Counted from the stretch's first letter, positions 6,656-26,553 are shown. The stretch is DNA of 27,060 nt from a virus (IMGVR_UViG_2681813321_000031), one strand, 5' to 3'. Made by a program: numbers and translations. Notes: generated by a model from the letters alone, not told the origin.

Positions 6656-7203
6656 GGGCGAACCTCCTTGTCAGAACCATTCAGCCTGGAATCAACAAGT
6701 GCAGCGCCAAAAACAGCATCACCAACACGGTCGTACAGTTTGCTAGCCAGCGGAGATTCAACGGCCTTAAGCATTGGATAAAGCTGGCTTGTCCAGATTT
6801 GATGGATTTCACGCAAATGCAGGTATACGCCTCTGGCGTTTCGTGCGACAGCTGACATATCAACCGCGTCAGCACCAGATAAATTCTTCTCCATCTGGTT
6901 AAAGGCGTTGATGTATGCCTCTTTGAACCGGGCTGCACGTTTGCCAGTAAAGCCCATAGCAAGGAACGCGAAGCCATCGCGGGTGATTTGATAGCAAGGT
7001 AGTTTGCGGCCTGTGCAATCGGTGTAATCACTGGGCTGAAAATTCAGCTCAGTGAATTCAACAGAGCACTCAAGCGTCTGGATTTTTTGAATAACGTTTT
7101 TGTGCTGCTTGCAGAAATATTCGGCAACGGCCAAAGAAGAGGTAACAGCCTTCCCATGGATAACATCAATTTTAGGGTGAGTTTGGGTAGGGGTGGTTGC
7201 CAT
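6652..7203 (-). CDS. rha: phage regulatory protein Rha (core, 183 aa from ATG 7201-7203; track ORF extends to 7500)
   Basis: VTSSLAVAEYF...FTELNF...GRKLPCYQITRDGFAFLAMGFTGKRAARFKEAYINAFN matches the Rha N-terminal domain. ATG at 7201-7203 has a GAGGA Shine-Dalgarno 7 nt upstream. The longer 282-aa ORF reads through an upstream terminator hairpin and the structured element. Confidence 0.8.
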   Translation of the reverse strand: MATTPTQTHPKIDVIHGKAVTSSLAVAEYFCKQHKNVIQKIQTLECSVEFTELNFQPSDYTDCTGRKLPCYQITRDGFAFLAMGFTGKRAARFKEAYINAFNQMEKNLSGADAVDMSAVARNARGVYLHLREIHQIWTSQLYPMLKAVESPLASKLYDRVGDAVFGAALVDSRLNGSDKEVRP

Positions 7204-7260
7204 AGTGACATCCTCATGTGCGAATTTTGAAAACTCACCACATGGGACGCCAATCACAGA

Positions 7261-7339
7261 GGTGGTGAGACGTACAGGGTTGGCGTAACCGGTCGCACAT
7301 GACCCCGGCGCATCTTTCGATGCCCCTGCACGCCCCACC
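7261..7339 (-). ncRNA. candidate structured cis-regulatory RNA in the rha leader (P1 16-bp helix enclosing P2 and P3 hairpins)
   Basis: Minus-strand GGUGGGGCGUGCAGGG (7339-7324) pairs with CCCUGUACGUCUCACC (7279-7264): 13 Watson-Crick + 3 G-U pairs, which become A-C mismatches on the plus strand. P2 GCAUC-GAAA-GAUGC at 7323-7310. Copy 2 has the same P1 and a P2 of CCAAC-UUCG-GUUGG. Confidence 0.45.
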
Positions 7340-7366
7340 ATAATTTGGATGTGAGGAAACGTGCGC

Positions 7367-7389
7367 AAAAAAACCGCTGAAGCGCGGTT
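7367..7389 (-). terminator. intrinsic terminator-like hairpin + U7 between the rha-like gene and rha
   Basis: Minus-strand AACCGC-GCUUCA-GCGGUU followed by UUUUU; stem and U tract are conserved in copy 2 while the loop and flanks diverge. Confidence 0.45.
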
Positions 7390-7583
7390 ATGCGCATGTG
7401 CGAATTTCAGGACGCCAATCCCGGCACCCGCTTTATAAGGTGCGGAGACAGTGTAACGTCCCGAAATTGCAGAATCAATATTTGGTCTTGAAATGATCAT
7501 ATAGCTGCTGATATCTTTAGAACTGTTCTTGGATGTTTCGGAGCCGTTTTATGCGAAACAGCTCCCCGTTATTGATGTTGAGT

Positions 7584-7609: not shown

Positions 7610-8316
7610 CACCGCTGCCAACCAATAACCTGAAATAACCCCATTTTCGGGTGATACCAGCGAGTCCCTCGCGGTTCTGCTTCCTCCATAACCCGATAAA
7701 AAGCAGCCATAAACGGTTCCACAGCAACAATTGCGCGACGTGACAACAATCCGTCCGGCGTCATGAACTCATGGGTGTCTGTAGGAATTTGATAGGCGTT
7801 CACCAGATTGCGGCATTTATCATCTGACAAACCGGTTTTTGCTTTCAGTTGGCGATATCCGGCATAGCCCTCACGAATAGTGCCCTTTTTAATTTGCTCG
7901 ACTGTTTCAGCAACGTGGCTGACTTTTTCTTCCACCTGAGTGATCCGTTTCTGTTGGCGAACGGCTTCAAGAGCCATCGCGGCAACCATTTCGATTTCGC
8001 TCATTGGCTTACGGATCTGTTCTTCCAGTTCGCGCCAGCGATCTACCAGGCGAGCAGTGAATTCAGGACAGAGCTGTGCGACGACAATGATGCTGTCGCG
8101 CTTACCTCGTTCACCTTCGAATACATACGCGCTAGAAAATCGGCGAGGCCCAAGTGATTGTTTATTCTCAATTTCCACAGTCTGTGGAAATTGGATGATT
8201 CCCTTTTTAGCCAGTGTTTCAATAGTTCTCTTAACACTATCTGGTCGGCTTCCCACCAGCTCTGCGATCTCAACGCTGGTCATGGATGCTTTGCCGTTAA
8301 AAATTGCGGTGTTCAT
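7609..8316 (-). CDS. Rha/antirepressor-like phage regulatory protein (235 aa) at the cII position
   Basis: N-terminal TSVEIAELVGSRPDSVKRTIETL resembles the Rha-type N-terminal DNA-binding motif; ATGA overlap with the upstream Cro-like gene. Confidence 0.55.
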   Translation of the reverse strand: MNTAIFNGKASMTSVEIAELVGSRPDSVKRTIETLAKKGIIQFPQTVEIENKQSLGPRRFSSAYVFEGERGKRDSIIVVAQLCPEFTARLVDRWRELEEQIRKPMSEIEMVAAMALEAVRQQKRITQVEEKVSHVAETVEQIKKGTIREGYAGYRQLKAKTGLSDDKCRNLVNAYQIPTDTHEFMTPDGLLSRRAIVAVEPFMAAFYRVMEEAEPRGTRWYHPKMGLFQVIGWQR

Positions 8317-8540
8317 TGTTGGTCTCCTGTGGGCTTGTCATCTTCTGTATTCGCTAGACTTGGGTGTGTATATGGAATGCTCGGATCCAGATGACAAAGA
8401 ATGGCAACATCCTCCGGAACACCTCGCGTTTTCCACTTTCCAACACCTTGACTGCCACGAGGCCTTCCTTTCTTTGGGAACCTGCGACCAATAGCGGCAT
8501 TGGTTTTAAATTGAATTTTTAATATTTCATAAAGGGTCAT
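8313..8540 (-). CDS. Cro/DicC-like small DNA-binding protein (75 aa)
   Basis: First gene divergent from cI across an operator-rich intergenic region; small and basic; ...FKTNAAIGRRF... resembles the Cro/DicC HTH region. Largely positional inference. Confidence 0.5.
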   Translation of the reverse strand: MTLYEILKIQFKTNAAIGRRFPKKGRPRGSQGVGKWKTRGVPEDVAILCHLDPSIPYTHPSLANTEDDKPTGDQQ

Positions 8541-8651
8541 TCTTTAGTCTCACACCAGATACTTTGTTATTCAACGATGTTAACCACAGGAATCCAAAGT
8601 ATCAAGAAATTCTGTTACTTTAGTATCAACAGCCATGAGAGGAGAAGAAAA
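8541..8651. promoter_or_regulatory. OR-like operator/promoter region between the cro-like gene and cI
   Basis: Three copies of the core AGTATCA / GATACT (8558-8564 inverted; 8598-8604 and 8622-8628 direct) in 110 bp; AGAGGAGAA Shine-Dalgarno before the cI ATG. Confidence 0.5.
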
Positions 8652-9308
8652 ATGAAGTCTTTAGGTGAACGTCTCATCAACGCACGGCAAAAAGCTGGGT
8701 TAACACAAGATGCGTTGGCTAAAAAAGCTGGGATCACCAGAGTTGCAATCAGTAAAGCCGAGCAAGGCCTTACAAAAAGTTTCAACGGTGACACCCTTTT
8801 TAAAGTTGCAGCTGCACTGCGGTGTTCACCGCAGTGGCTTCAGAACGGAGATGAAAAAGATAAGCATTGGGAAAATAATGTTAAGAGCTGCCCACAGAGA
8901 GACACAGCACACTCTTACCCTGTAATTAACTGGGTTCAGGCAGGATTATTCGCAACTTCTGGTGATGACTACAACATGTATGATCAGGATAATTGGAGGC
9001 ATTCTGTAAAATACGCTGGTGAGAGGGGGTTCTGGCTGGAAGTGCACGGAGACTCAATGACTTCGCCCGTAGGAATAACATTTCCTGAAGGAATGTCGAT
9101 CCTTGTCAACCCAGATAAAGAAGTTTTTTCAGGGTGTTACGTCATCGCCAGAAAAAAATCTACCAATGAAGCAACATTCAAAAAATATATTTCTGACATG
9201 GGAAAGGCGTTTCTAAAGCCCCTTAATCCACAATATCCAATCATAGAAATGGACAATGATTGCGAAATAGTAGGTGTTGTGGTTGATGCCAGGTGGGATA
9301 TTTTCTGA
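8652..9308 (+). CDS. CI-like prophage repressor (XRE HTH + S24 LexA-like peptidase domain)
   Basis: MKSLGERLINARQKAGLTQDALAKKAGITRVAISKAEQG is an HTH; C-terminal ...LEVHGDSMTSP...CYVIARKK... shows the S24 Ser/Lys dyad pattern; strong RBS. Track ORF starts 75 nt earlier at an alternative codon. Confidence 0.9.
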   Translation: MKSLGERLINARQKAGLTQDALAKKAGITRVAISKAEQGLTKSFNGDTLFKVAAALRCSPQWLQNGDEKDKHWENNVKSCPQRDTAHSYPVINWVQAGLFATSGDDYNMYDQDNWRHSVKYAGERGFWLEVHGDSMTSPVGITFPEGMSILVNPDKEVFSGCYVIARKKSTNEATFKKYISDMGKAFLKPLNPQYPIIEMDNDCEIVGVVVDARWDIF

Positions 9309-9411
9309 CCAGACACAAAACACAAAAAGAAACCAAAGTATCAAAAATCACTTGCCACACCTTGATACCTTAGTTACCATAAAACAAAGTTCGTAACTGA
9401 GGTATCATCCC
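9309..9411. promoter_or_regulatory. OL-like operator/promoter region downstream of cI
   Basis: The same GTATCA core recurs three times (9337-9343, 9363-9369 inverted, 9401-9407), forming an inverted pair AAGTATCAA...TTGATACCT. Confidence 0.4.
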
Positions 9412-9771
9412 ATGATCAATAAAGCTACAACTCTTGACTGTCTCGAAGAACTGAAAAACCTCGGCAGCCTCATTACACTAATAGCAAAAGCAACACCTGA
9501 TGCTACGCTCTCTAGCGATATAGAGTCATGCGCAGGACTGGCATGGGATATGACAAATAGCATATCCAGAAAGCTATCGTCAGCAATGCTTTTACAGAAC
9601 AAAAATTCTGCAATCAACAACCGTCTTCGCACCCAACGCGAAGCCTGCGGCTTAACAACCGCCGAACTCGCCAGGCTGCTCGATCTCGATGAAGAAATTA
9701 TCATCCAGTGGGAGAGCGGAGAGTATGAACCAACTATCAGTATGCTTATCCCACTGGCAAAAGATGAATAA
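9412..9771 (+). pseudogene. 3'-truncated copy of the XRE HTH gene, cut at the tandem-duplication junction
   Basis: Identical to the first 116 codons of 16969..17472, then diverges after the microhomology ccactggcaaa (9751-9761) into sequence from the DUF968 gene, ending ...LAKDE. Confidence 0.6.
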
Positions 9772-9944
9772 CGTTCCGGCTCAGGCTCCAGCAGGACACG
9801 CCCCTGCATAAACAGGGGCATCAGCTCTGAACCGGGCCTGAACAATACGATCCCCATACGCGGGGCAATTTCAGGGGTCAGTAGTGCTCTCACGGTCACC
9901 TCAGCGAACGGTATTGCATGAACGCAGAAGAAAAAATTCAGCCA

Positions 9945-10202
9945 TCACGCAGTAAACTCCTTCACCAGTATTTCAAACTGGCTTACCTGGCCTTCCAGTT
10001 CCGCCACGCAATCCACCAGCTCATCCACCGCCTTTTGTGTGCGGTGTTTTGCCAGCAGCAGATCACGCAGCGCCGGAGTAAGCTGCTTGCGGAGCGTATC
10101 CTTTGCCACGCTCGTTTTTTCCATCTGTTCAGCACAACGAAGCATCTCCTGCGCCTGCCGACGAAGTTGTTCCGGTGAAACAGTGATTGCTCTGTTGTTC
10201 AA
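9945..10202 (-). CDS. hypothetical protein (85 aa), copy B
   Basis: Identical to 2394..2651. Confidence 0.55.
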   Translation of the reverse strand: MNNRAITVSPEQLRRQAQEMLRCAEQMEKTSVAKDTLRKQLTPALRDLLLAKHRTQKAVDELVDCVAELEGQVSQFEILVKEFTA

Positions 10203-11599
10203 AATAAACGCTCCGTTTTACTGCCCGACATGCGGTTATTGCTGTATCTGCGCGGATTGCCCGGCGTCATGGGTGTGGAAAGAACCCGGGCACTCTCCTG
10301 GTCCACAGGCAGAAAATGTCCGTTATGAAAACGCCGGTAAATGGTCCCGAGCGTGCCATTACGCTGTTTCGTGATGTTGATTTCTGCTATGCCTCTGGCC
10401 TGAGTTTCCGGGTTGTATACCTCATCCCTGTAAAGCATCAGAATGATGTCGGCATCCGCCTCGATTTCCCCGGAGTTTTTCAGGTCCGAGTTCATTGGGC
10501 GTTTATTGGGTCTGGATTCCACGCCGCGGGAGAGCTGGCTCAGAGCAATCAGCGGAAAACCGCCGGATTTTGCCAGGCTTTTAAGTCCCTTTGAGATTTC
10601 CCCCACAGCAAGGTCGTGACGCCCCGTGCTGCGGGTTTTAATCAGGCCGAGGTAATCGACCACAACCAGCGCCGTTTCCGGGTGTTTCATCCGGTGGTGC
10701 TTCGTGGTTGCACATATCTCATCAATGGTCAGGTTTGCCTGGTCCACCATCCAGATATTACGCCCCGTCATTCGTCCCACGCCCTGCGAGAAACGCGCCC
10801 AGTCTTCATCTTCAAAACGGGCAACAGACTTAAGACGGGATACCGGCATTCCACCGGCAGCAGACACCATACGTTCACCAATCTGGATGTTCGCCATCTC
10901 CATGGTGAACAGAAGCACGCCATGCCCCTGCTCAGTCACCTTGTCGATGATGTCCAGCGCAAGTTCGGTTTTCCCCATCGAAGGACGGGCGGCAATGAAT
11001 ACCAGGTCTCCGGGCTCCATACCGCCCGTTTTTGCGTCCAGTTCATCAATACCGGTCATCAGCGCCCTGGATTTCTCCAGTCCCTGATTGCGGCATTCAA
11101 CACGGTCGACCACTTCCGGAAGGACATCATCAATGTGAACCGGCTGAATGACGCCCTTTCCGGTCGACAGTGAGGCCATCATGTTCTGCGCATCCTTCAG
11201 GGCATCCTCGGCTGCTTCACAGGTATACGCATCACGTAAATTCTGTAATGCTTCAGTCAGTGTTTTTTCTGCATCGCGCAGTGCGGCATTGCGCCGCAAC
11301 GCTGCGACATAGTGCTCCAGTGAAGACTTCACCCAGGTTTTGCGTCCGGTGTCGGTAATCACCGGGGCAAGTTCCGGCATCTCATTGCACAGCAGTACGG
11401 GGTCAATGACGCCGAATATGCGAGCCTGTCTGCAAATCCCCGCGTAAATATCCCGGTACTGACGCACAAAAAATACATCCGCCGGAAGTGTGGCCAGAAT
11501 ATCCATCACTTCCGGATCGGCCCCACGCAGAAAAAACGCACCGATGACAGCGCCTTCCAGGTCATCGTTACGCCATGCCGGGGTGTTCTGGCTGGTCAT
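10199..11599 (-). CDS. DnaB-family replicative helicase, copy B
   Basis: Identical protein to 2648..4048. Confidence 0.95.
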   Translation of the reverse strand: MTSQNTPAWRNDDLEGAVIGAFFLRGADPEVMDILATLPADVFFVRQYRDIYAGICRQARIFGVIDPVLLCNEMPELAPVITDTGRKTWVKSSLEHYVAALRRNAALRDAEKTLTEALQNLRDAYTCEAAEDALKDAQNMMASLSTGKGVIQPVHIDDVLPEVVDRVECRNQGLEKSRALMTGIDELDAKTGGMEPGDLVFIAARPSMGKTELALDIIDKVTEQGHGVLLFTMEMANIQIGERMVSAAGGMPVSRLKSVARFEDEDWARFSQGVGRMTGRNIWMVDQANLTIDEICATTKHHRMKHPETALVVVDYLGLIKTRSTGRHDLAVGEISKGLKSLAKSGGFPLIALSQLSRGVESRPNKRPMNSDLKNSGEIEADADIILMLYRDEVYNPETQARGIAEINITKQRNGTLGTIYRRFHNGHFLPVDQESARVLSTPMTPGNPRRYSNNRMSGSKTERLF

Positions 11600-12504
11600 G
11601 CGGCAACACCTCCGATACGAGAACGGTAGCTGGGCCAGTTAAACGACAACCAGTTGCGCCCGCCATCGGTGATCCTGTCGGCAATCCGGGGACTGATGAA
11701 CGCCCACAATTCTTCCGGTGAAAGGTTGCTGATCAGGATAGTTGGCAAAATACCCTCATACCGGGCATTGATAATTTCCTGCAAAATGGCCATTTCAGCC
11801 GCACTGCCAAACTGAACGCCGACTTCGTCGACAATCAGCAAATCCAGTGACGCATAATGCTCAATGACGTCATCCGCTGTTTTTTCACTGTCATTCCGCC
11901 AGCAGTTTTTCACAGCCCGGGTAAGGCGCATCACGTCGGTGATCTCCACACTGGCCAGATAGTTACGGATGATGTGTTTTGCCATTGATACCGCCAGATG
12001 ATTTTTCCCGGTACCGCAACTGCCGGTCATAACAAGACTGGTACCGTTCTCCAGCATATCTGGCCAGTTCTCCGCATAGCGGCGACAGGCCGCAAGATTT
12101 CTGGCTGCGTCAGGATTAACCTCCAGATAATTATCAAACTCGCAGTCCCGAAAACGCAGAGCAATTCCGGCGTTATCAGTCAGTTCTTCCGCCTTGAGGG
12201 ACGACAGTTCCATGGTCAAATCACTGGCCTCAGCGATCAAGCAGTCAGGGCAGCATGAAATTTTTTCTCTGTCCTCGCCATTACGATCGATCCACACCAG
12301 TATATGCGTACGATATTTACCGTGTTTTTCGCAATATCCGCGACCTTCACGCATCAGGCAGGAACGATAAGGCCATGGCTTTTCGCCCTTCTGAGCAAAT
12401 GCAATCTCTGCCCGTAACTCATCCATTTCTGCCCGTAACTCATCCATTCGCGCCTGTAGTCTTGTTTGTTTCTCACGTTGGTCAATCGTCATCATCGCTG
12501 TCAC
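11596..12504 (-). CDS. DnaC/IstB-like helicase loader, copy B
   Basis: Identical protein to 4045..4953. Confidence 0.85.
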   Translation of the reverse strand: MTAMMTIDQREKQTRLQARMDELRAEMDELRAEIAFAQKGEKPWPYRSCLMREGRGYCEKHGKYRTHILVWIDRNGEDREKISCCPDCLIAEASDLTMELSSLKAEELTDNAGIALRFRDCEFDNYLEVNPDAARNLAACRRYAENWPDMLENGTSLVMTGSCGTGKNHLAVSMAKHIIRNYLASVEITDVMRLTRAVKNCWRNDSEKTADDVIEHYASLDLLIVDEVGVQFGSAAEMAILQEIINARYEGILPTILISNLSPEELWAFISPRIADRITDGGRNWLSFNWPSYRSRIGGVAA

Positions 12505-12505
12505 C

Positions 12506-13498
12506 TCAGAATGTCAATTTGTTACTGGATTTACCGAATTTGTCCGACATGGCTCCCAGGCCAGCCAGGACATCGACCTGTCGCTGTCGCCCACCTCCGT
12601 GAGCGGCTGGCTGTTGCCAGTAATCTTCGAAGTGACGATCGGGTCCAAAGAACGTCGCAGCCTGCTTCACGAACTGTGTGCCGATATTTCCTGTAGCACG
12701 TACCCAGGCGGCATACCGCTTCACGCCATCAAGCATGGTCTCCGGTTTTATTCCCTCCCTGATACGGGCTTTCCAGGCTTTGAAGGCTGCTGACTTGGAA
12801 TTGCCACCAGCACGTTTGGGATATTCCTGCCAGGCCTGTTCAAATTCCGGTGAATATTCCTGTCGGGCAGAACGCGCTGGCGCAGACGCGTCAGCGGATG
12901 CATCAATAGTGTTTTTAGTCTCCGTTGTAATCTCTGTAGTAATCTCTGTATTTGTATCAACATTCGGCGTATCCCCTGTTCCGTTATGACGTCGGGGGGT
13001 GTTCCGTTTTAACGTAATAGCTGTATCGCTGATTGCATTATTGCTGTTACTTTCTGGCGAAACAGAAGAAGGTGTGGTGATGGCCGCAATTGCCTGTGGG
13101 TTGATCCCGACAAACAAAATATTGCTGCATTTCACCCCATCGAGCATTTCCACCGTGCGTAAATCCAGAGTAATAAACCCTGCATCGCGCAGACGCTTCA
13201 GCGCATCTGCGGTTTCCCTTTTCCCGAAACCAAACTGCTCAGCAAACGCCTGGTAGCTTCTTTGCAGTTTGTCGCCCTGAAAACGCTTGCGATATCCCAG
13301 CAACGCTCCGGTGTGCTCATCCCTGACCTCTGTCGGGCGGTACCAGTAAACGATCTCTGAAAGCAGAGCGATAGCCGTCGCATCCGGACGCCCACTGGGT
13401 AGTCGAATATATTTCCACCAGTTCGCAGGTGTAACATTGCCGGAAATATTAATTTGACCAATAGCCATAACTTCCGGTGTGGGGGCGTAACGGCTCAT
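12506..13498 (-). CDS. putative replication initiator (O-like), copy B
   Basis: Identical protein to 4955..5947. Confidence 0.55.
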   Translation of the reverse strand: MSRYAPTPEVMAIGQINISGNVTPANWWKYIRLPSGRPDATAIALLSEIVYWYRPTEVRDEHTGALLGYRKRFQGDKLQRSYQAFAEQFGFGKRETADALKRLRDAGFITLDLRTVEMLDGVKCSNILFVGINPQAIAAITTPSSVSPESNSNNAISDTAITLKRNTPRRHNGTGDTPNVDTNTEITTEITTETKNTIDASADASAPARSARQEYSPEFEQAWQEYPKRAGGNSKSAAFKAWKARIREGIKPETMLDGVKRYAAWVRATGNIGTQFVKQAATFFGPDRHFEDYWQQPAAHGGGRQRQVDVLAGLGAMSDKFGKSSNKLTF

Positions 13499-13794
13499 AC
13501 AACCTCCTTCCGCGGCATGAGAATTGTGTAGCCACGCGCAGGTTGTAGTCTGGCTTTTGCATCAATAGTAAGCGTTGCAATTTTTCGGATATGAAGATAA
13601 CCAGCTCTTTCCAGTGCCAGGGTTTCCCTGAATATCGCTTGCTTAGAACAACAGCAGAAATCAGCAAGCACCTGATGATCAATAACTCTCTCGCCTTCAC
13701 CGTCTGAAGAACCCGACATCAAAACACGCAACATAATCAGGCGCTGAATCGGGTTATCGAAAGCACATCCGCACACAAACTGAAAACAGTTCAC
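13495..13794 (-). CDS. hypothetical protein, copy B
   Basis: Identical to 5944..6243. Confidence 0.45.
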   Translation of the reverse strand: MNCFQFVCGCAFDNPIQRLIMLRVLMSGSSDGEGERVIDHQVLADFCCCSKQAIFRETLALERAGYLHIRKIATLTIDAKARLQPARGYTILMPRKEVV

Positions 13795-14015
13795 GCCACA
13801 CCTCCCAGACGCTTAAACATTTTTCCAGACAGAAATACCGCCAGAGGGTAACTGATGGTGTAGCTACGCCCCTGTAGTTCGCACACGACTTTCTGGCTTT
13901 CAGCGTTGACTAGGCAAACCCGCAGAACGTGACCGTTGCTGGTGGCGAACCACTGCCCCACACGGGGGCAACGGTTGTATCGGTGATACAGGGAATTAAC
14001 GATGTGGCGGATCAT
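13791..14015 (-). CDS. hypothetical protein, copy B
   Basis: Identical to 6240..6464. Confidence 0.4.
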   Translation of the reverse strand: MIRHIVNSLYHRYNRCPRVGQWFATSNGHVLRVCLVNAESQKVVCELQGRSYTISYPLAVFLSGKMFKRLGGVA

Positions 14016-14206
14016 GGACGCACCTCCACCGTAGTTACGTATTTAACCGGGCTACCTTTCATTGAGATGGTTTCACACATCTCTGCCGCTTTCAGTTCCG
14101 CTGTTTTTCTGGATTTATAGCGACGGTGCCAGACAGATACATCCGTGCGAACTGATACATCGTTTCTGTATTCCGTAGTGGAGATGATGATTTCGTAACT
14201 AATCAT
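14012..14206 (-). CDS. hypothetical protein, copy B
   Basis: Identical to 6461..6655. Confidence 0.4.
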   Translation of the reverse strand: MISYEIIISTTEYRNDVSVRTDVSVWHRRYKSRKTAELKAAEMCETISMKGSPVKYVTTVEVRP

Positions 14207-14754
14207 GGGCGAACCTCCTTGTCAGAACCATTCAGCCTGGAATCAACAAGTGCAGCGCCAAAAACAGCATCACCAACACGGTCGTACAGTTTGCTAGCCA
14301 GCGGAGATTCAACGGCCTTAAGCATTGGATAAAGCTGGCTTGTCCAGATTTGATGGATTTCACGCAAATGCAGGTATACGCCTCTGGCGTTTCGTGCGAC
14401 AGCTGACATATCAGACGTATCGGCACCTGATAAACTCTTCTCCATCAGGTTAAAGGCGTTGATGTATGCCTCTTTGAACCGGGCAGCACGTTTACCAGTG
14501 AAGCCCATGGCAAGGAACGCGAAGCCATCGCGGGTGATTTGATAGCAAGGTAGTTTGCGGCCTGATGCGTCGGTGTATTCACTTAACACAAAATTGTGTT
14601 CAGTAAATTCAGCGGAACATTCGAGGTTTCTAATTCTATCTAAAACCCGCTCATGCCGTTTAGTAAAGTAATTAGCTACTGCAAGAGATGTGGTGACAAC
14701 GCGACCATTGATAATCGTGATTTCAGGGTGAGATTGGGTTGGGAGAGTAGTCAT
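14203..14754 (-). CDS. rha: phage regulatory protein Rha, divergent allele (core from ATG 14752-14754; track ORF extends to 15057)
   Basis: C-terminal half identical to copy A; the N-terminal Rha domain carries many substitutions (e.g. KQHKNVIQKIQTL vs KRHERVLDRIRNL). Confidence 0.8.
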   Translation of the reverse strand: MTTLPTQSHPEITIINGRVVTTSLAVANYFTKRHERVLDRIRNLECSAEFTEHNFVLSEYTDASGRKLPCYQITRDGFAFLAMGFTGKRAARFKEAYINAFNLMEKSLSGADTSDMSAVARNARGVYLHLREIHQIWTSQLYPMLKAVESPLASKLYDRVGDAVFGAALVDSRLNGSDKEVRP

Positions 14755-14814
14755 GGTGACAGCCCCTATGTTGAATTCAATGAACTCACCACCAAGGCTT
14801 TCCACGACCATATA

Positions 14815-14893
14815 GGTGGTGAGACGTACAGGGGTGGAAATACCGGTCAACATAGAACCCGGCCCAACCGAAGTTGGCCCTGCACGCCCCACC
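14815..14893 (-). ncRNA. candidate structured RNA element, copy B (covarying with 7261..7339)
   Basis: P1 strands identical to copy A; P2 is CCAAC-UUCG-GUUGG (plus strand 14864-14877); P3 retains the CCGG...CCGG pairing with a diverged loop. Confidence 0.45.
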
Positions 14894-14924
14894 ATAATTT
14901 GGGCGTAACGATGCTCATGACACG

Positions 14925-14946
14925 AAAAAACCGCATGAGCGCGGTT
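14925..14946 (-). terminator. intrinsic terminator-like hairpin + U tract, copy B
   Basis: Minus-strand AACCGC-GCUCAU-GCGGUU followed by UUUU; same stem as copy A, different loop. Confidence 0.4.
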
Positions 14947-15140
14947 GTGCTCTATATTGAATTTCGGGTTTCCACGCCCGGCACCCGCTTTATAAGGTGC
15001 CTGAGCAGTGTAACGTCCCGGAATTGCAGAATCAATATTTGGTCTTGAAATGATCATATAGCTGCTGATATCTTTAGAACTGTTCTTGGATGTTTCGGAG
15101 CCGTTTTATGCGAAACAGCTCCCCGTTATTGATGTTGAGT

Positions 15141-15166
15141 GAGCCGGGTTACTCCCGGCTTTTTTT
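15141..15166 (+). terminator. plus-strand intrinsic terminator, copy B
   Basis: Identical to 7584..7609. Confidence 0.45.
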
Positions 15167-15873
15167 CACCGCTGCCAACCAATAACCTGAAATAACCCCA
15201 TTTTCGGGTGATACCAGCGAGTCCCTCGCGGTTCTGCTTCCTCCATAACCCGATAAAAAGCAGCCATAAACGGTTCCACAGCAACAATTGCGCGACGTGA
15301 CAACAATCCGTCCGGCGTCATGAACTCATGGGTGTCTGTAGGAATTTGATAGGCGTTCACCAGATTGCGGCATTTATCATCTGACAAACCGGTTTTTGCT
15401 TTCAGTTGGCGATATCCGGCATAGCCCTCACGAATAGTGCCCTTTTTAATTTGCTCGACTGTTTCAGCAACGTGGCTGACTTTTTCTTCCACCTGAGTGA
15501 TCCGTTTCTGTTGGCGAACGGCTTCAAGAGCCATCGCGGCAACCATTTCGATTTCGCTCATTGGCTTACGGATCTGTTCTTCCAGTTCGCGCCAGCGATC
15601 TACCAGGCGAGCAGTGAATTCAGGACAGAGCTGTGCGACGACAATGATGCTGTCGCGCTTACCTCGTTCACCTTCGAATACATACGCGCTAGAAAATCGG
15701 CGAGGCCCAAGTGATTGTTTATTCTCAATTTCCACAGTCTGTGGAAATTGGATGATTCCCTTTTTAGCCAGTGTTTCAATAGTTCTCTTAACACTATCTG
15801 GTCGGCTTCCCACCAGCTCTGCGATCTCAACGCTGGTCATGGATGCTTTGCCGTTAAAAATTGCGGTGTTCAT
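15166..15873 (-). CDS. Rha/antirepressor-like regulatory protein (235 aa), copy B
   Basis: Identical to 7609..8316. Confidence 0.55.
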   Translation of the reverse strand: MNTAIFNGKASMTSVEIAELVGSRPDSVKRTIETLAKKGIIQFPQTVEIENKQSLGPRRFSSAYVFEGERGKRDSIIVVAQLCPEFTARLVDRWRELEEQIRKPMSEIEMVAAMALEAVRQQKRITQVEEKVSHVAETVEQIKKGTIREGYAGYRQLKAKTGLSDDKCRNLVNAYQIPTDTHEFMTPDGLLSRRAIVAVEPFMAAFYRVMEEAEPRGTRWYHPKMGLFQVIGWQR

Positions 15874-16097
15874 TGTTGGTCTCCTGTGGGCTTGTCATCT
15901 TCTGTATTCGCTAGACTTGGGTGTGTATATGGAATGCTCGGATCCAGATGACAAAGAATGGCAACATCCTCCGGAACACCTCGCGTTTTCCACTTTCCAA
16001 CACCTTGACTGCCACGAGGCCTTCCTTTCTTTGGGAACCTGCGACCAATAGCGGCATTGGTTTTAAATTGAATTTTTAATATTTCATAAAGGGTCAT
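15870..16097 (-). CDS. Cro/DicC-like protein, copy B
   Basis: Identical to 8313..8540. Confidence 0.5.
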   Translation of the reverse strand: MTLYEILKIQFKTNAAIGRRFPKKGRPRGSQGVGKWKTRGVPEDVAILCHLDPSIPYTHPSLANTEDDKPTGDQQ

Positions 16098-16208
16098 TCT
16101 TTAGTCTCACACCAGATACTTTGTTATTCAACGATGTTAACCACAGGAATCCAAAGTATCAAGAAATTCTGTTACTTTAGTATCAACAGCCATGAGAGGA
16201 GAAGAAAA
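16098..16208. promoter_or_regulatory. OR-like operator region, copy B
   Basis: Identical to 8541..8651. Confidence 0.5.
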
Positions 16209-16865
16209 ATGAAGTCTTTAGGTGAACGTCTCATCAACGCACGGCAAAAAGCTGGGTTAACACAAGATGCGTTGGCTAAAAAAGCTGGGATCACCAGAGT
16301 TGCAATCAGTAAAGCCGAGCAAGGCCTTACAAAAAGTTTCAACGGTGACACCCTTTTTAAAGTTGCAGCTGCACTGCGGTGTTCACCGCAGTGGCTTCAG
16401 AACGGAGATGAAAAAGATAAGCATTGGGAAAATAATGTTAAGAGCTGCCCACAGAGAGACACAGCACACTCTTACCCTGTAATTAACTGGGTTCAGGCAG
16501 GATTATTCGCAACTTCTGGTGATGACTACAACATGTATGATCAGGATAATTGGAGGCATTCTGTAAAATACGCTGGTGAGAGGGGGTTCTGGCTGGAAGT
16601 GCACGGAGACTCAATGACTTCGCCCGTAGGAATAACATTTCCTGAAGGAATGTCGATCCTTGTCAACCCAGATAAAGAAGTTTTTTCAGGGTGTTACGTC
16701 ATCGCCAGAAAAAAATCTACCAATGAAGCAACATTCAAAAAATATATTTCTGACATGGGAAAGGCGTTTCTAAAGCCCCTTAATCCACAATATCCAATCA
16801 TAGAAATGGACAATGATTGCGAAATAGTAGGTGTTGTGGTTGATGCCAGGTGGGATATTTTCTGA
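16209..16865 (+). CDS. CI-like repressor, copy B
   Basis: Identical to 8652..9308. Confidence 0.9.
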   Translation: MKSLGERLINARQKAGLTQDALAKKAGITRVAISKAEQGLTKSFNGDTLFKVAAALRCSPQWLQNGDEKDKHWENNVKSCPQRDTAHSYPVINWVQAGLFATSGDDYNMYDQDNWRHSVKYAGERGFWLEVHGDSMTSPVGITFPEGMSILVNPDKEVFSGCYVIARKKSTNEATFKKYISDMGKAFLKPLNPQYPIIEMDNDCEIVGVVVDARWDIF

Positions 16866-16968
16866 CCAGACACAAAACACAAAAAGAAACCAAAGTATCA
16901 AAAATCACTTGCCACACCTTGATACCTTAGTTACCATAAAACAAAGTTCGTAACTGAGGTATCATCCC
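16866..16968. promoter_or_regulatory. OL-like operator region, copy B
   Basis: Identical to 9309..9411. Confidence 0.4.
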
Positions 16969-17472
16969 ATGATCAATAAAGCTACAACTCTTGACTGTCT
17001 CGAAGAACTGAAAAACCTCGGCAGCCTCATTACACTAATAGCAAAAGCAACACCTGATGCTACGCTCTCTAGCGATATAGAGTCATGCGCAGGACTGGCA
17101 TGGGATATGACAAATAGCATATCCAGAAAGCTATCGTCAGCAATGCTTTTACAGAACAAAAATTCTGCAATCAACAACCGTCTTCGCACCCAACGCGAAG
17201 CCTGCGGCTTAACAACCGCCGAACTCGCCAGGCTGCTCGATCTCGATGAAGAAATTATCATCCAGTGGGAGAGCGGAGAGTATGAACCAACTATCAGTAT
17301 GCTTATCCCACTGGCAAATATTCTTGGCTGCGATCCGATGTGCCTGTTAACTGGTGAGGTTACTCCTCCGGAGCAACCAAAAAGTGAGGAGCAGCAACAC
17401 CATGACGCATCTCAACAAGTTTGCCCCTTATCTCGCGAAGCTCTTCTGCGGAAGAACCAATACCAATGGTGA
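16969..17472 (+). CDS. XRE-family HTH protein at the N position (167 aa; HTH in the central region)
   Basis: ...NNRLRTQREACGLTTAELARLLDLDEEIIIQWESGEYEPTISMLIPLANILGCDPMCLLTG is a typical XRE HTH_3 domain; the 58-aa N-terminal extension is uncharacterised (alternative start at ATG 17143). Confidence 0.65.
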   Translation: MINKATTLDCLEELKNLGSLITLIAKATPDATLSSDIESCAGLAWDMTNSISRKLSSAMLLQNKNSAINNRLRTQREACGLTTAELARLLDLDEEIIIQWESGEYEPTISMLIPLANILGCDPMCLLTGEVTPPEQPKSEEQQHHDASQQVCPLSREALLRKNQYQW

Positions 17473-17966: not shown

Positions 17967-18160
17967 CAACAAATATGCCCTGAACGTTTATTGCGGTTTT
18001 ATCGCCGGGGATTGTTACAACCTTAATCCACAGGAGGCTTTATTGTGACTTTTATAAAGAATATGGCATCACACAAGACCGCCTGCCTTATTGCACAATA
18101 CGGTGAAAATTACATGCATATTGCCTGCTTATTTCTGCGTAAAGCATACGGGAGATAATA

Positions 18161-18361
18161 ATGCATCAGAAAACAGCAGAACACGAACAAACCAGAATAT
18201 TGCTGACCATCAAAAACGGGAAAGTAATATTCATTCGCCATGTTCATGACGATGAACTTGTAGGAACTCTTTCAACATTCCTGTTTATTGCAGAAAAGGC
18301 AGGATATGACGTTATTGCACCAGCAGATGAAGATGAAGATGAAGATGAAGATGAGGAATAA
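18161..18361 (+). CDS. hypothetical small protein with poly-acidic C-terminal tail (DEDEDEDEDEE)
   Basis: 66-aa ORF with GGGAGATAATAATG start context; tail encoded by the hexanucleotide repeat (GATGAA)4-GATGAG at 18328-18357. Confidence 0.5.
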   Translation: MHQKTAEHEQTRILLTIKNGKVIFIRHVHDDELVGTLSTFLFIAEKAGYDVIAPADEDEDEDEDEE

Positions 18362-19782: not shown

Positions 19783-19954
19783 CTATCAGGCACTGCGCGA
19801 GGCGGCGGAACAGGCAACGCAAGATGAATGGGTAGCATATATTTTGCCGGGTCATAACGGCATTTATCCTGCGCGCACGTCTGAGGGTAGGCATTGTGCG
19901 GATACTTTATTGACTGGCCTGGCGTCTGTCAGGGGCGGGAGAGCATCAACATGA
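19769..19954 (+). CDS. Ea22-like N-terminal family small protein (61 aa)
   Basis: N-terminus SKIDYQALREAAEQA parallels SEINYQALREVAERA of 20454..20939; same architecture AAGGAGG-6 nt-GTGAGC overlapping the upstream stop. Confidence 0.45.
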   Translation: MSKIDYQALREAAEQATQDEWVAYILPGHNGIYPARTSEGRHCADTLLTGLASVRGGRAST

Positions 19955-20457
19955 GCATCAGAACCTACGCAGTGAATTGCAATGACGCATGGCTAAACAC
20001 CGAAGGTGATGACATCTCCGGCTCATACGTTAAGTACAAAGACCATCAGGAAGTGGTTGCCGCTCTTGAGGCCAAGTGCGCGGCGCTGGCAGCGGAGAAT
20101 GCGGGAATAAAGTCTGCAATTCCAGAATCACGGGATATTGAAGATGACAATGACAATATGGATGACGTATCTCTCGCGGAAGACTTCGGGTTCAATCATG
20201 CAATAGAACGGATGAGGAGACAGATACCTGAAACGCCAACCACTGATGCTTTCCTGGCTGAAGTCCGGGCGCAGGGGGTGGATGCTGCTATAGAAGCTGC
20301 AAAAAATCTGGTGGCCCAAGAATATGAGTATAAGGATTTCAAAGCGGCGCAGAGTGATTGCTGTATGTACCCTGGTTCAGACCTGGTAGGGAAGGTTGAA
20401 ATGACTGAGTGGTTAGTTGACTTTGCTGCCCAGCTTCGCAAAGGAGGCAACCAGTGA
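19951..20457 (+). CDS. hypothetical acidic protein (168 aa from ATG 19951)
   Basis: ATGA overlap with the stop of 19769..19954; track ORF 19894..20457 starts at TTG. Confidence 0.5.
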   Translation: MSIRTYAVNCNDAWLNTEGDDISGSYVKYKDHQEVVAALEAKCAALAAENAGIKSAIPESRDIEDDNDNMDDVSLAEDFGFNHAIERMRRQIPETPTTDAFLAEVRAQGVDAAIEAAKNLVAQEYEYKDFKAAQSDCCMYPGSDLVGKVEMTEWLVDFAAQLRKGGNQ

Positions 20458-20940: not shown

Positions 20941-21456
20941 ATGGCGTTAACACACCACGAACTCTGTCAGATTGCGTACAAGTTCCTTAAGCGCAACGGG
21001 TTCAAGGTTTGCTTTCATGACCGCTTTGTTGCTGTAACCAGTACCGGAGAACAGCCAGATGCTATGGGATTCAGAAATTCAGCATCATGCCTGATAGAGG
21101 CGAAGTGTTCTCGTGCTGACTTGTTGGCAGATAGAAAAAAGCGTTTCCGTAAAAATCCCTCACTTGGCATGGGCGACTGGCGATTCTTTATTAGTGAGCC
21201 GGAAATTATTTCAGTTGAGGATTTACCTCCCGGCTGGGGATTACTTCACGTTGTTAACGGAAGAGTACGGAAAGTACATGGATGGCCCAGGGGTAATTGC
21301 TGTTGGGGTAATCCTGACGATAAGCCATTTACTGGGAATAAGCAGGTTGAATGCGATTACATGTTATCTGCATTAAGGCGCATGGAGTTGAGAGGGCACC
21401 TTAATGAAATATATGACGGTGTGATTGTTAATAAGAAAGAAGGAAACGCGGCATGA
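20941..21456 (+). CDS. hypothetical protein with PD-(D/E)xK-like nuclease motif (171 aa)
   Basis: ATG at 20941 preceded by AAAGGAGAG; ...DAMGF...CLIEAKCS... fits the D...(D/E)xK signature. The 3' end of this gene is where the 2.87-kb repeat begins. Confidence 0.5.
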   Translation: MALTHHELCQIAYKFLKRNGFKVCFHDRFVAVTSTGEQPDAMGFRNSASCLIEAKCSRADLLADRKKRFRKNPSLGMGDWRFFISEPEIISVEDLPPGWGLLHVVNGRVRKVHGWPRGNCCWGNPDDKPFTGNKQVECDYMLSALRRMELRGHLNEIYDGVIVNKKEGNAA

Positions 21457-22211
21457 TCACTATTACCAAAGGGCGACTGCTGACAATCAAGCAGTGGCGC
21501 GAAACATACGGACCGGGTAGCAACGTTGTACTGCCAGCAGAAGAAGCGGAAGAACTGGCACGAATTGCACTGGTATCGCTGGAAGCAGAGCCGGTGGCAA
21601 AGATTATAGCTCATTACCCATTAGGAGTTGACGTAGGCAAACAAAAGTTCGTACAGGCCATTGGAGAGCTTCCTGACTTTGGCGGATATCTATTTGCCGC
21701 CCCGCCAGCGCCGGTAGTGCCGGAAGAAGCAACTCCGGAAAACGTAGAAATGCTCTCTGGCTATGTTTCCACGTACAAATTAACCGATAGCGAGCGCGAT
21801 ATTGCTGCCGAAATATGGAACGCCTGCCGCACCGCCATGCTTCAGTCCGGAAACTTTCGGGAAAGCAAGAATTCGTCAACCAATAATTTTCGGGAAATCC
21901 CGGAAGCGTCAACCAGCTCTCCGGTAACTCCGGCTCTTCTGCCTGGTGGTTTCACCATTGAGGAGGCGAAGGAATTACATGAAGACCTGGTACGCAGCCA
22001 CATAAGCAAGGCCTTAAGTGGCGAAAAGATGAAAAAGAAAGATCGCGATGCTGATTTGCGCTGGATTCATGGCGTTATAGTTCAGGCAGCGTGGTTTGTA
22101 AAAGCATCACTGGAGCAGAATGCACTATCGGGCAACTCTCCGGTAACTCCGGATGGTTGGATAAGCTGTAGTGAGCGAATGCCGGACGACAGGCAGGAGG
22201 TGAATCAATGA
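21453..22211 (+). CDS. DUF551-like prophage protein (252 aa)
   Basis: C-terminal PDGWISCSERMPD resembles the DUF551 signature; ATGA coupling with the upstream gene. Confidence 0.6.
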   Translation: MITITKGRLLTIKQWRETYGPGSNVVLPAEEAEELARIALVSLEAEPVAKIIAHYPLGVDVGKQKFVQAIGELPDFGGYLFAAPPAPVVPEEATPENVEMLSGYVSTYKLTDSERDIAAEIWNACRTAMLQSGNFRESKNSSTNNFREIPEASTSSPVTPALLPGGFTIEEAKELHEDLVRSHISKALSGEKMKKKDRDADLRWIHGVIVQAAWFVKASLEQNALSGNSPVTPDGWISCSERMPDDRQEVNQ

Positions 22212-22291
22212 GCTGGCCTGATGCAATCGTAACTCTGGGGGTGGTATTCGCAGCAGCGTTTGTTGTGTTCTCGATTTGTCGATGGGGATAA
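22208..22291 (+). CDS. candidate 27-aa hydrophobic micropeptide
   Basis: MSWPDAIVTLGVVFAAAFVVFSICRWG; ATG overlaps the DUF551 stop (ATGA). Too short for the ORF track. Confidence 0.3.
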   Translation: MSWPDAIVTLGVVFAAAFVVFSICRWG

Positions 22292-22295
22292 CCAC

Positions 22296-22538
22296 ATGTT
22301 CGCTTTGATTCAACGCGGTCAGATATACACGGACAGAGCTGGATACCCCGTGGTGATTACTCGCATCACTGAGCACTCAGTGTTCTTTCGACGGATGGAC
22401 GGACGATCCGGGCGGGTACGCATTGGTGAGTTAAACTGCCTGTTCGAACATATTGACCACCAGGAGTACCGCAAAATTCTCGCGGACACTGAGCAGGAAA
22501 AGCACCTGAAAAAATTACGAGCCATAAAAAGGAAGTAA
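22296..22538 (+). CDS. hypothetical protein (80 aa from ATG 22296)
   Basis: Track ORF 22260..22538 starts at TTG; ATG at 22296. Confidence 0.45.
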   Translation: MFALIQRGQIYTDRAGYPVVITRITEHSVFFRRMDGRSGRVRIGELNCLFEHIDHQEYRKILADTEQEKHLKKLRAIKRK

Positions 22539-22550
22539 AGAATGAATAAA

Positions 22551-22571
22551 NNNNNNNNNNNNNNNNNNNNN
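22551..22571. other. assembly gap (21 N)
   Basis: Run of n; an ATG (22542) with AAGGAAG Shine-Dalgarno opens an ORF that runs straight into the gap. Confidence 1.
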
Positions 22572-23623
22572 GGGGACGCTGGGTGATTGAAGGCGACCTG
22601 TCCAGTTACTTCGACACCGTACATCATCGACTGCTGATGAAGGCTGTACGCCGCAGGATCAGTGACGCACGTTTCATGACTCTGCTGTGGAAAACCATCA
22701 AGGCGGGACATATCGATGTCGGTCTCTTTCGGGCGGCCAGTGAAGGTGTGCCACAGGGCGGTGTTATATCGCCGCTATTATCGAACATCATGCTGAATGA
22801 GTTCGATCAATACCTGCATGAGCGCTACCTGAGCGGGAAAGCCAGAAAAGATCGGTGGTACTGGAATAACAGTATCCAACGGGGCCGAAGTACGGCGGTC
22901 AGAGAAAACTGGCAGTGGAAACCCGCGGTGGCGTACTGCCGCTATGCCGATGATTTTGTCCTCATCGTCAAAGGCACCAAAGCACAGGCGGAAGCCATCA
23001 GGGAGGAGTGTCGGGGTGTGCTCGAAGGCAGTCTGAAACTCAGGCTGAACATGGATAAGACTAAAATCACCCATGTTAATGACGGCTTTATCTTTCTGGG
23101 GCACAGGATCATTCGCAAACGCAGTCGTTATGGCGAGATGCGAGTGGTCTCAACGATCCCGCAGGAGAAAGCCAGAAACTTCGCCGCATCGCTGACAGCA
23201 CTGTTATCAGGCAACTACAGTGAAAGCAAAGTCGATATGGCTGAACAACTCAACCGAAAACTGAAAGGCTGGGCCATGTTCTATCAGTTCGTTGATTTTA
23301 AGGCCAAAGTCTTCAGTTATATCGACCGTGTCGTGTTCTGGAAGCTGGCTCACTGGCTGGCCCGCAAATACCGTACAGGTATCGCTTCCCTGATGAGGTG
23401 GTGGTGTAAATCACCGAAACCGGGTCAGAGCAAAACGTGGGTTTTATTTGGTAAAACCAATCACGGCAAGCTCAGCGGCGAAATACTGTACCGGTTGGTG
23501 GGGCAAGGCAAGAAGCTGTTCCGCTGGCGGCTACCCGAAGGTAATCCCTATCTGAGGACGGAGACCAGAAACACGTATACATCGCGCTTTACAGAAGTGG
23601 CAATGGCGTTCGCCAGCATTTAA
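22572..23623 (+). CDS. group II intron-encoded reverse transcriptase/maturase, 5'-truncated by the gap, no endonuclease domain
   Basis: GRWVIEGDLSSYFDTVHH, VPQGGVISPLLSNIMLNEFD and YCRYADDFVLIV parallel the RT motifs of Ll.LtrB LtrA; LKGWAMFYQF is maturase-domain-X-like. Frame is open upstream into the N-run. Confidence 0.85.
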
Positions 23624-23628
23624 ATGGA

Positions 23629-23662
23629 GAGCCGGATGCGCTGAAAGGTGCACGTCCGGTTC
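23629..23662 (+). ncRNA. group II intron domain V (catalytic hairpin)
   Basis: GAGCCGGATGCGCTGAAAGGTGCACGTCCGGTTC: 34 nt, AGC triad, GAAA tetraloop, 2-nt bulge; near-identical in architecture to the Ll.LtrB domain V as recalled. Followed by a domain VI-like hairpin with a bulged A (~23663-23711). Confidence 0.85.
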
Positions 23663-23685
23663 GGGGAGGAGAGGCAGGGAAATAG

Positions 23686-24200
<515 letters not shown>

Positions 24201-24324
24201 TGGGAATAAGCAGGTTGAATGCGATTACATGTTATCTGCATTAAGGCGCATGGAGTTGAGAGGGCACCTTAATGAAATATATGACGGTGTGATTGTTAAT
24301 AAGAAAGAAGGAAACGCGGCATGA
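24201..24324 (+). pseudogene. 3' fragment of the PD-(D/E)xK-like gene (duplicate of 21333..21456)
   Basis: Begins abruptly at the IS right end; lacks a start codon. Confidence 0.6.
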
Positions 24325-25079
24325 TCACTATTACCAAAGGGCGACTGCTGACAATCAAGCAGTGGCGCGAAACATACGGACCGGGTAGCAACGTTGTACT
24401 GCCAGCAGAAGAAGCGGAAGAACTGGCACGAATTGCACTGGTATCGCTGGAAGCAGAGCCGGTGGCAAAGATTATAGCTCATTACCCATTAGGAGTTGAC
24501 GTAGGCAAACAAAAGTTCGTACAGGCCATTGGAGAGCTTCCTGACTTTGGCGGATATCTATTTGCCGCCCCGCCAGCGCCGGTAGTGCCGGAAGAAGCAA
24601 CTCCGGAAAACGTAGAAATGCTCTCTGGCTATGTTTCCACGTACAAATTAACCGATAGCGAGCGCGATATTGCTGCCGAAATATGGAACGCCTGCCGCAC
24701 CGCCATGCTTCAGTCCGGAAACTTTCGGGAAAGCAAGAATTCGTCAACCAATAATTTTCGGGAAATCCCGGAAGCGTCAACCAGCTCTCCGGTAACTCCG
24801 GCTCTTCTGCCTGGTGGTTTCACCATTGAGGAGGCGAAGGAATTACATGAAGACCTGGTACGCAGCCACATAAGCAAGGCCTTAAGTGGCGAAAAGATGA
24901 AAAAGAAAGATCGCGATGCTGATTTGCGCTGGATTCATGGCGTTATAGTTCAGGCAGCGTGGTTTGTAAAAGCATCACTGGAGCAGAATGCACTATCGGG
25001 CAACTCTCCGGTAACTCCGGATGGTTGGATAAGCTGTAGTGAGCGAATGCCGGACGACAGGCAGGAGGTGAATCAATGA
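24321..25079 (+). CDS. DUF551-like protein, copy B
   Basis: Identical to 21453..22211. Confidence 0.6.
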   Translation: MITITKGRLLTIKQWRETYGPGSNVVLPAEEAEELARIALVSLEAEPVAKIIAHYPLGVDVGKQKFVQAIGELPDFGGYLFAAPPAPVVPEEATPENVEMLSGYVSTYKLTDSERDIAAEIWNACRTAMLQSGNFRESKNSSTNNFREIPEASTSSPVTPALLPGGFTIEEAKELHEDLVRSHISKALSGEKMKKKDRDADLRWIHGVIVQAAWFVKASLEQNALSGNSPVTPDGWISCSERMPDDRQEVNQ

Positions 25080-25159
25080 GCTGGCCTGATGCAATCGTAA
25101 CTCTGGGGGTGGTATTCGCAGCAGCGTTTGTTGTGTTCTCGATTTGTCGATGGGGATAA
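25076..25159 (+). CDS. candidate 27-aa hydrophobic micropeptide, copy B
   Basis: Identical to 22208..22291. Confidence 0.3.
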   Translation: MSWPDAIVTLGVVFAAAFVVFSICRWG

Positions 25160-25163
25160 CCAC

Positions 25164-25406
25164 ATGTTCGCTTTGATTCAACGCGGTCAGATATACACGG
25201 ACAGAGCTGGATACCCCGTGGTGATTACTCGCATCACTGAGCACTCAGTGTTCTTTCGACGGATGGACGGACGATCCGGGCGGGTACGCATTGGTGAGTT
25301 AAACTGCCTGTTCGAACATATTGACCACCAGGAGTACCGCAAAATTCTCGCGGACACTGAGCAGGAAAAGCACCTGAAAAAATTACGAGCCATAAAAAGG
25401 AAGTAA
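25164..25406 (+). CDS. hypothetical protein (80 aa), copy B
   Basis: Identical to 22296..22538. Confidence 0.45.
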   Translation: MFALIQRGQIYTDRAGYPVVITRITEHSVFFRRMDGRSGRVRIGELNCLFEHIDHQEYRKILADTEQEKHLKKLRAIKRK

Positions 25407-25418
25407 AGAATGAATAAA

Positions 25419-25439
25419 NNNNNNNNNNNNNNNNNNNNN
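25419..25439. other. assembly gap (21 N), copy B
   Basis: Run of n identical in length and position to 22551..22571. Confidence 1.
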
Positions 25440-26491: not shown

Positions 26492-26496
26492 ATGGA

Positions 26497-26530: not shown

Positions 26531-26553
26531 GGGGAGGAGAGGCAGGGAAATAG

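Follow-up and report, generated by a model that had tools for sequence, protein, structure and literature searches.

The stretch of DNA analysed here (the window) comprises 27,060 nucleotides of viral sequence (IMGVR_UViG_2681813321_000031) and represents the early region of a lambdoid prophage of Escherichia coli that resembles phiP27. The gene for the repressor, cI, lies on the + strand at positions 8652-9308 and encodes a protein of 218 amino acids (CI), which has a helix-turn-helix (HTH) N-terminal domain and a LexA/S24 C-terminal domain (Pfam HTH_3, 1.7e-14; Peptidase_S24, 3.2e-22). The start of cI was placed at 8652 rather than at the start of a longer open reading frame (ORF) at 8577, on the basis of a GAGGAG ribosome-binding site and the RefSeq annotation of relatives. 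CI aligns with full-length lambda CI (3bdn) over residues 12-215 with E = 8.7e-34, and in this alignment the features on which the lambda repressor relies for its cleavage are retained: the VQAG cleavage site (Ala97-Gly98), the GDSMT motif that contains Ser135, and the TFKK lysines, i.e., the Ala-Gly site and the Ser/Lys dyad. In the cI region, identity is 95% with phage phiP27 and about 86% with several Stx1a- and Stx2a-converting prophages. A single copy of the region is present in each of 197 (about 3.6%) of 5,426 complete E. coli genomes, and among 50,697 deposited phage genomes the N-terminal domain was found at more than 60% identity only in phiP27 and a few Stx-converting prophages.

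Divergent from cI, on the - strand at 8313-8540, is a gene in the position of cro, which is the first gene of the PR operon and encodes 75 amino acids. The protein models as an all-alpha Cro fold, and would thus be the small Cro-type protein of the locus; it has no Pfam match and no PDB sequence match, the sole family to which it belongs (PHROG 4749) has no assigned function, and its homologues are all annotated as hypothetical. The family is linked to the present CI family across Enterobacterales. The model also contains a basic insertion, PKKGRPRGSQ, between the helices of residues 14-20 and 30-34. Beyond cro, the - strand carries Rha/Ant-type genes, DnaC- and DnaB-like replication genes and a Q-like antiterminator gene. 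Beyond cI, the + strand carries an early-left-type operon, in which an HTH gene is followed by Ea22-like genes; in phiP27, xis and int follow the corresponding early-left genes. The HTH gene is the first gene of the PL operon ('CII-like' PHROG; 9412-9771, + strand) and is cut by the junction of a tandem duplication, its intact copy being at 16969-17472. Thus, judging from the order of the genes around cI, the two intergenic regions that flank cI sit where OR/PR/PRM and OL/PL sit in lambda. The tandem duplication, which is 7.56 kb in length, has given the window two copies of this whole immunity region: the second cI is at 16209-16865, and there are no differences over 8300-9761 relative to the copy at +7557.

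The original prediction was that six copies of AGTATCA/TGATACT occur in the two intergenic regions. Three of these are exact (8598-8604, 8622-8628 and 9337-9343, and again at 16155, 16179 and 16894 in the duplicated copy), and the other three are variants with one mismatch, so that the core shared by all six is GTATC. Positions 9363-9369 read TGATACC and positions 9401-9407 read GGTATCA, each one mismatch from the predicted core; the copy assigned to 8558-8564 reads GATACTT, the 7-mer in register being AGATACT at 8557-8563, i.e., its coordinates were off by one. The exact 5-mer GTATC/GATAC is present in all six sites, and GTATCA in five of them. In the 27-kb window, AGTATCA is absent outside the intergenic regions flanking cI and their duplicated copy; its six matches in the whole window compare with 1.97 expected, and at least six were reached in 0 of 100 shuffles. 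When the remainder of the de-duplicated window is used to derive the expectation, the six GTATC cores in the 214 nucleotides of the two intergenic regions compare with 0.40 expected (Poisson P = 4e-6). A motif search across the window and related prophages thus gave cores that are enriched about 15-fold relative to the rest of the window and that are kept in the relatives. The arrangement in direct and inverted pairs was also borne out: the cores at 8598 and 8622 are in direct orientation and 24 bp apart, 8558-8566 and 8595-8603 form an inverted pair of 9 nucleotides (100% complementary), and 9363-9377 and 9393-9407 form an inverted pair of 15 nucleotides (93% complementary).

The reading of these motifs as operators clustered on both sides of cI stands, but the motifs do not pair with each other as half-sites. 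Instead, each GTATC core belongs to a separate 14-bp pseudo-palindrome, GATAC-N4-GTATC, of which it forms the strong half, the other half being degenerate (GTTAC, GTAAC, GTTTC, GAATC or TTATT). All six sites fit GATAC-N4-GTATC with no more than two mismatches; at this threshold there are 21 matches in the window, compared with 7.1 expected, and 12 of the 21 are the six sites and their duplicates. Three putative sites (A, B and C) lie between cI and the divergent Cro-fold gene, and three (D, E and F) lie just downstream of cI. As an independent measure, a position weight matrix (PWM) was trained on non-E. coli loci only, and its five best distinct matches in the de-duplicated window are D, B, C, E and F, with scores from 24.9 to 14.5 bits, whereas the maximum in shuffled sequence averages 10.8 bits. 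Two matches elsewhere are most likely due to chance: one at 19900-19915 (13.7 bits) is a few bases inside an ORF with a TTG start (19894-20457), and the other at 18153-18168 (10.1 bits) overlaps an ATG in the early-left operon (at about 18162, with GGGAG upstream).

Both intergenic regions were scanned with a consensus for sigma-70 promoters, and each gave one promoter-like match. The predicted PR is on the - strand at 8577-8605, with the -35 hexamer TTGATA (8605-8600), a 17-nucleotide spacer and the -10 hexamer TAACAT (8582-8577), and heads the cro-like gene and the early-right operon. Putative operator B, the middle site of the cluster (8590-8603, GAATCCAAAGTATC; 22.5 bits), overlaps its -35 hexamer, and putative operator A, the site proximal to cro (8558-8571, GATACTTTGTTATT; two mismatches, with a strong left half and a degenerate right half), overlaps its predicted start site. 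Thus, if CI occupied B and A, it would shut off the Cro-fold, Rha/Ant and replication genes. Site A is the weakest of the six by the independent PWM (8.6 bits, below the two off-target matches); its orthologue in the Stx2_12E129 prophage is a perfect palindrome, GATACTTAAGTATC. The second copies of A, B and C, which are identical, are at 16115-16128, 16147-16160 and 16171-16184 (span 16115-16184). A fourth OR site over the start codon of cro (8537-8552, TCATTCTTTAGTCTCA, about 6 bits) was considered and dropped, as it is not conserved in relatives.

Putative operator C, the site proximal to cI (8614-8627, GTTACTTTAGTATC; one mismatch, 19.4 bits), lies where a promoter for cI would be sought. 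No + strand promoter in 8541-8651 passed the consensus scan. A candidate PRM core is proposed, from sequence and conservation, at 8613-8626 on the + strand, where either an extended -10 element, TGtTACTTT (8613-8621), or TAGTAT (8621-8626) could serve; neither has a good -35 element. Both of these -10 candidates are inside site C, so occupancy of C would repress cI.

In the second intergenic region, the predicted PL is on the + strand at 9352-9380, with the -35 hexamer TTGCCA (9352-9357), a 17-nucleotide spacer and the -10 hexamer TACCAT (9375-9380), and is surrounded by the second cluster of sites of the same specificity. Putative operator D, the site proximal to cI (9329-9342, GAAACCAAAGTATC; one mismatch), is upstream of the PL -35 and is the best PWM match in the window (24.9 bits). 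Putative operator E, the middle site (9364-9377, GATACCTTAGTTAC; 19.2 bits), lies in the PL spacer and -10, and putative operator F, the distal site (9393-9406, GTAACTGAGGTATC; 14.5 bits), shares sequence with the PL leader and with the first PL gene's ribosome-binding site, GAGG. Their second copies are likewise identical (16886-16899, 16921-16934 and 16950-16963; span 16886-16963). In the E. coli/phiP27 lineage, including the window, there is no terminator between cI and PL (9309-9351), so that transcripts from PRM should run into the PL operon unless they are otherwise blocked; in most of the relatives L043-L051, a strong intrinsic terminator separates cI from OL/PL, e.g. AGCCAGATATTTCTGGCTTTTTTTT in L051.

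The same overlap of sites with PR and PL is found in L051, a relative from Providencia, in which a promoter equivalent to PR was found independently and the orthologue of PL has the form TTGACA-17-TACATT (10 of 12 matches). Further relatives were gathered as CI homologues down to 49% identity, and their loci were compared. In six relatives from E. coli and Stx phages, with CI 94-98% identical, the sites are invariant, including site E, and the flanks vary; the HTH of these close relatives is almost the same, the one conservative change (Ile/Val) lying before the recognition helix. Ten distant loci, from Kosakonia/Dryocola-like bacteria, Serratia, Photorhabdus, Morganella, Providencia and others, have a CI that is 53-86% identical with the helix TRVAISKAE(Q/L)G. 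Upstream of cI, all ten have three sites with spacings of exactly 32 and 24 bp; downstream, each has two or three, and the remaining intergenic DNA is scrambled. The density of sites in distant relatives is 56 times that of flanking DNA, and identity to the base in the window is 0.80-0.85 inside the sites, compared with 0.49-0.50 outside. Column identity is 98% for site B (in 14 relatives), 91% for site C and 90% for site E, and the B-C spacing is 24 bp in every relative; B, C and E may owe some of their conservation to the promoter elements that they overlap rather than to operator function. Site F is missing in five relatives, which have just two OL sites. The motifs give a testable operator consensus of a specific form, namely GATAC-N4-GTATC, with three sites at OR and three at OL and a fixed spacing of 32 and 24 bp upstream of cI.

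The segment of CI that contains the recognition helix, LTQxxLAKKAGVTRVAISKAE(Q/L)GLTK, changes hardly at all among homologues with an overall identity as low as 53%. Where the recognition helix has changed, the sites have changed too. In Yersinia ruckeri, the helix is SRVAISKAELG and the sites are GTAAC-TAAA-GTGTC and GTTAC-TTTG-GTGTC. In Serratia sp. Ag1, the helix is SRMAISKIEMG and there are perfect palindromes of the form TAAAC-N4-GTTTA on both sides of cI (TAAACTAAAGTTTA and TAAACTTTAGTTTA), the upstream sites being spaced again at 32 and 24 bp. In E. coli P0051, the helix is SRVTISKIELR, and GAAAC-CTAG-ATTTC and GTAAC-CTAG-ATTTC occur on both sides of cI. In all three lineages with altered helices, the half-sites are altered (to GTGTC, GTTTA and ATTTC, respectively) and the 5-N4-5 frame is kept. 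The half-site therefore tracks the CI helix, GTATC going with TRVAISKAE(Q/L)G, in what are few independent lineages, and this covariation matches what one would expect of heteroimmune lambdoid phages.

The sites in the window are enriched, overlap consensus promoters, are conserved and covary with the recognition helix of CI, and very probably they are the OR and OL operators of a lambdoid immunity region of the phiP27 type, read by CI. The layout that had been recognised from the motifs, i.e., that of the OR and OL of a CI/Cro switch, is thus supported by the genes, the promoter overlap, the conservation and the covariation, the evidence for all of which is computational. The mechanism proposed is as follows. 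A dimer of CI would bind the 14-bp GATAC-N4-GTATC via an HTH like those of 434 and P22. In the lysogen, CI dimers would occupy A/B and E/F (together with D), and PR and PL would be silent: at PL, E would fill the spacer and -10, F would cover the leader and the ribosome-binding site, and D would lie upstream of the -35. Site C, on the presumptive PRM core, would provide negative autoregulation of cI. Since CI has an Ala-Gly cleavage site of the lambda type together with the Ser/Lys dyad, it should be cleaved upon SOS induction; RecA-stimulated cleavage at Ala97-Gly98 would free PR and PL, after which the Cro-fold protein would take over the same sites. Beyond the binding of CI and Cro, we infer an order of affinities among the sites, cooperativity, and looping between OL and OR.

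This switch can be compared with those of well-known phages. As in lambda, the order is cro, PR/OR/PRM and cI, with cro and cI divergent, and then an OL/PL cluster that is co-directional with cI; as in lambda, there are three sites per cluster, and OR1 and OR2 of lambda are 24 bp apart from centre to centre, like B and C. The C-terminal domain of CI is homologous to that of lambda CI (E of about 4e-31 to structures of the lambda domain), with the cleavage and catalytic motifs kept. The operators are 17 bp in lambda, whereas here they are 14 bp (5-N4-5 with a GATAC core), and the N-terminal domain of CI resembles 434 Cro and P22 c2 more than it does lambda CI. Here, OL abuts cI and is about 775 bp from OR, with no genes between cI and OL, no rex genes and, in this lineage, no terminator. 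In contrast to lambda, the -10 of PR is not under a site but between A and B, an HTH protein takes the place of N as the product of the first PL gene, and the Cro-position protein is predicted to be all-alpha, whereas lambda Cro has an alpha+beta fold.

The HTH of CI belongs to the same family as those of 434 Cro (E = 1e-8) and P22 c2 (E = 1.4e-8). The operators of 434 and P22 are short, have two-fold symmetry and consist of conserved outer half-sites around 4 central bp that vary, like the sites described here, and there are three of them at OR and three at OL in each phage; their half-sites are ACAA in 434 and of the ATTTAAG type in P22, from which GATAC differs. Among lambdoid Stx-associated phages, in which CI controls PR and PL, the number of sites varies, and some relatives of the present region have two OL sites, as 933W does. 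933W and H-19B differ from the present phage in immunity specificity, and no sequence similarity between their immunity regions and the present window was detected. Their operators have been mapped experimentally: 933W has three OR and two OL sites, and H-19B has four OR sites (reviewed in PMC8065619).

A more radical version of the proposal is that the wiring of the switch differs from that of lambda, in that a cooperative B-C pair, 24 bp apart, straddles PR and PRM. The pair proximal to PR, A-B, is 32 bp apart, with the PR -10 uncovered between the two sites. If CI were cooperative on the 24-bp pair, the consequence would be either strong, obligatory autorepression or activation from the unusual position of about -32 to -36, and such a wiring, unlike that of lambda, would replace the OR1-OR2/OR3 logic. 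This is a speculative reading, which we regard as unlikely. As it stands, the switch is an ordinary lambda-style switch, whose DNA target had not previously been spelled out and which adds nothing conceptual to the lambdoid paradigm.

Three other explanations of the repeats have been considered. The first is that the inverted pair E/F acts as RNA, forming a hairpin that hides the first PL gene's ribosome-binding site in transcripts that read through from cI. The hairpin (9363-9407, 15 bp) has a folding energy of -20 kcal/mol with z = -5.5 relative to shuffles, and its 3' arm holds the GAGG; read-through would be favoured in the E. coli/phiP27 lineage, which, unlike most relatives, has no terminator between cI and PL, and a single substitution in arm F (A to G, in CFSAN029787) retains a G-U pair. 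Any two inverted operators, however, yield such a hairpin. Complementarity in distant relatives extends to about 11 of 14 positions (counted by eye), a level that the shared operator consensus would by itself account for, no compensatory changes in the arms were seen in the relatives, and five relatives dispense with site F altogether. Rfam detected no known RNA families in 8300-9800. Such a hairpin is rather improbable and would in any case be an extra layer on the operators, not a replacement for them; transcripts from PL would start in the loop and escape it.

The second explanation is that the sites are read mainly or only by another regulator, either the 75-residue Cro-fold protein or the product of the HTH gene downstream of cI (the 'CII-like' PHROG), and that CI binds elsewhere. 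The Cro-fold family accompanies the CI family in every relative and, because it too varies in the heteroimmune ones, covariation alone cannot separate CI from the Cro-fold protein or assign the sites to CI. Yet the CI helix is nearly invariant exactly where GTATC is kept and differs in three of three relatives that lack GTATC, the two intergenic regions contain no alternative repeated palindrome for CI, and several relatives with the sites either lack the downstream HTH gene or have another gene in its place. It is thus very unlikely that CI is not the principal reader. In lambdoid switches, Cro and CI share operators, so binding by Cro would supplement the assignment of the sites to CI and not compete with it. 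The last explanation, that the repeats are reiterated -35-like hexamers (four of the six sites read TTGATA, or TATCAA as its reverse complement, on one strand) or a chance cluster in AT-rich intergenic DNA, is scarcely credible, since a single TTGATA has a properly spaced -10, the conserved unit is 14-16 bp and includes the second half-site, the 32/24 spacing is fixed across genera, relatives carry perfect palindromes, and the shuffle and Poisson tests reject chance.

The probable assignment of the sites to CI has some practical interest. phiP27 (Stx2e) and several Stx1a- and Stx2a-converting prophages share this immunity type. Knowledge of the operators would make it possible to predict immunity groups and superinfection exclusion among Stx phages, to design reporter or derepression assays, and to compare the architecture of the switch with those of lambda, 933W and H-19B. 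A literature search (phiP27, VT1-Sakai and the motif AAAGTATCA, each with "operator") returned no study of the present immunity type, and no operator mapping for the phiP27-type region was found in the searchable literature; the Stx-phage operators that have been mapped belong to other immunity types.

Other features of the window concern its repeats. A second tandem duplication, of 2.86 kb and 100% identical, comprises 21333-24192 and 24201-27060. The repeat contains a fragment of an rve integrase core and a group II intron with an ORF for a reverse transcriptase/maturase (22583-23623), and Rfam places Intron_gpII at 23627-23713 and 26495-26581 in the two copies; each copy has a run of 21 N (22551-22571 and 25419-25439).

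In the 7.56-kb duplication, 2200-9761 matches 9751-17318, with the microhomology CACTGGCAAA at the junction (about 9751-9761). It takes in the replication genes, the Rha/Ant genes, cro, cI and both operator clusters, and truncates the first PL gene in copy 1, leaving 119 amino acids compared with 167. Neither a contiguous junction nor two cI regions were found in any of the 5,426 complete E. coli genomes, so this duplication is either rare or an artefact of assembly. The two copies differ only in 6863-7464, where there are 170 differences. This region contains, according to Rfam, a C4 antisense RNA (RF01695) and isrK (RF01394), at 7258-7345 and 7367-7443 on the - strand, and the second copy of the pair is at 14812-14899 and 14924-15000, also on the - strand. 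The C4/isrK pair lies upstream of an Ash-Rha antirepressor-like ORF, i.e., in the manner of a secondary immunity module like immI of P1. The putative recognition sequence of C4 and its repeated target change together, being ATTGGCGTCC in copy 1 and CGTGGAAAC and CGTGGAAAG in copy 2, which suggests, from the sequences of the two copies, that two heteroimmune C4 alleles lie side by side in the tandem repeat.
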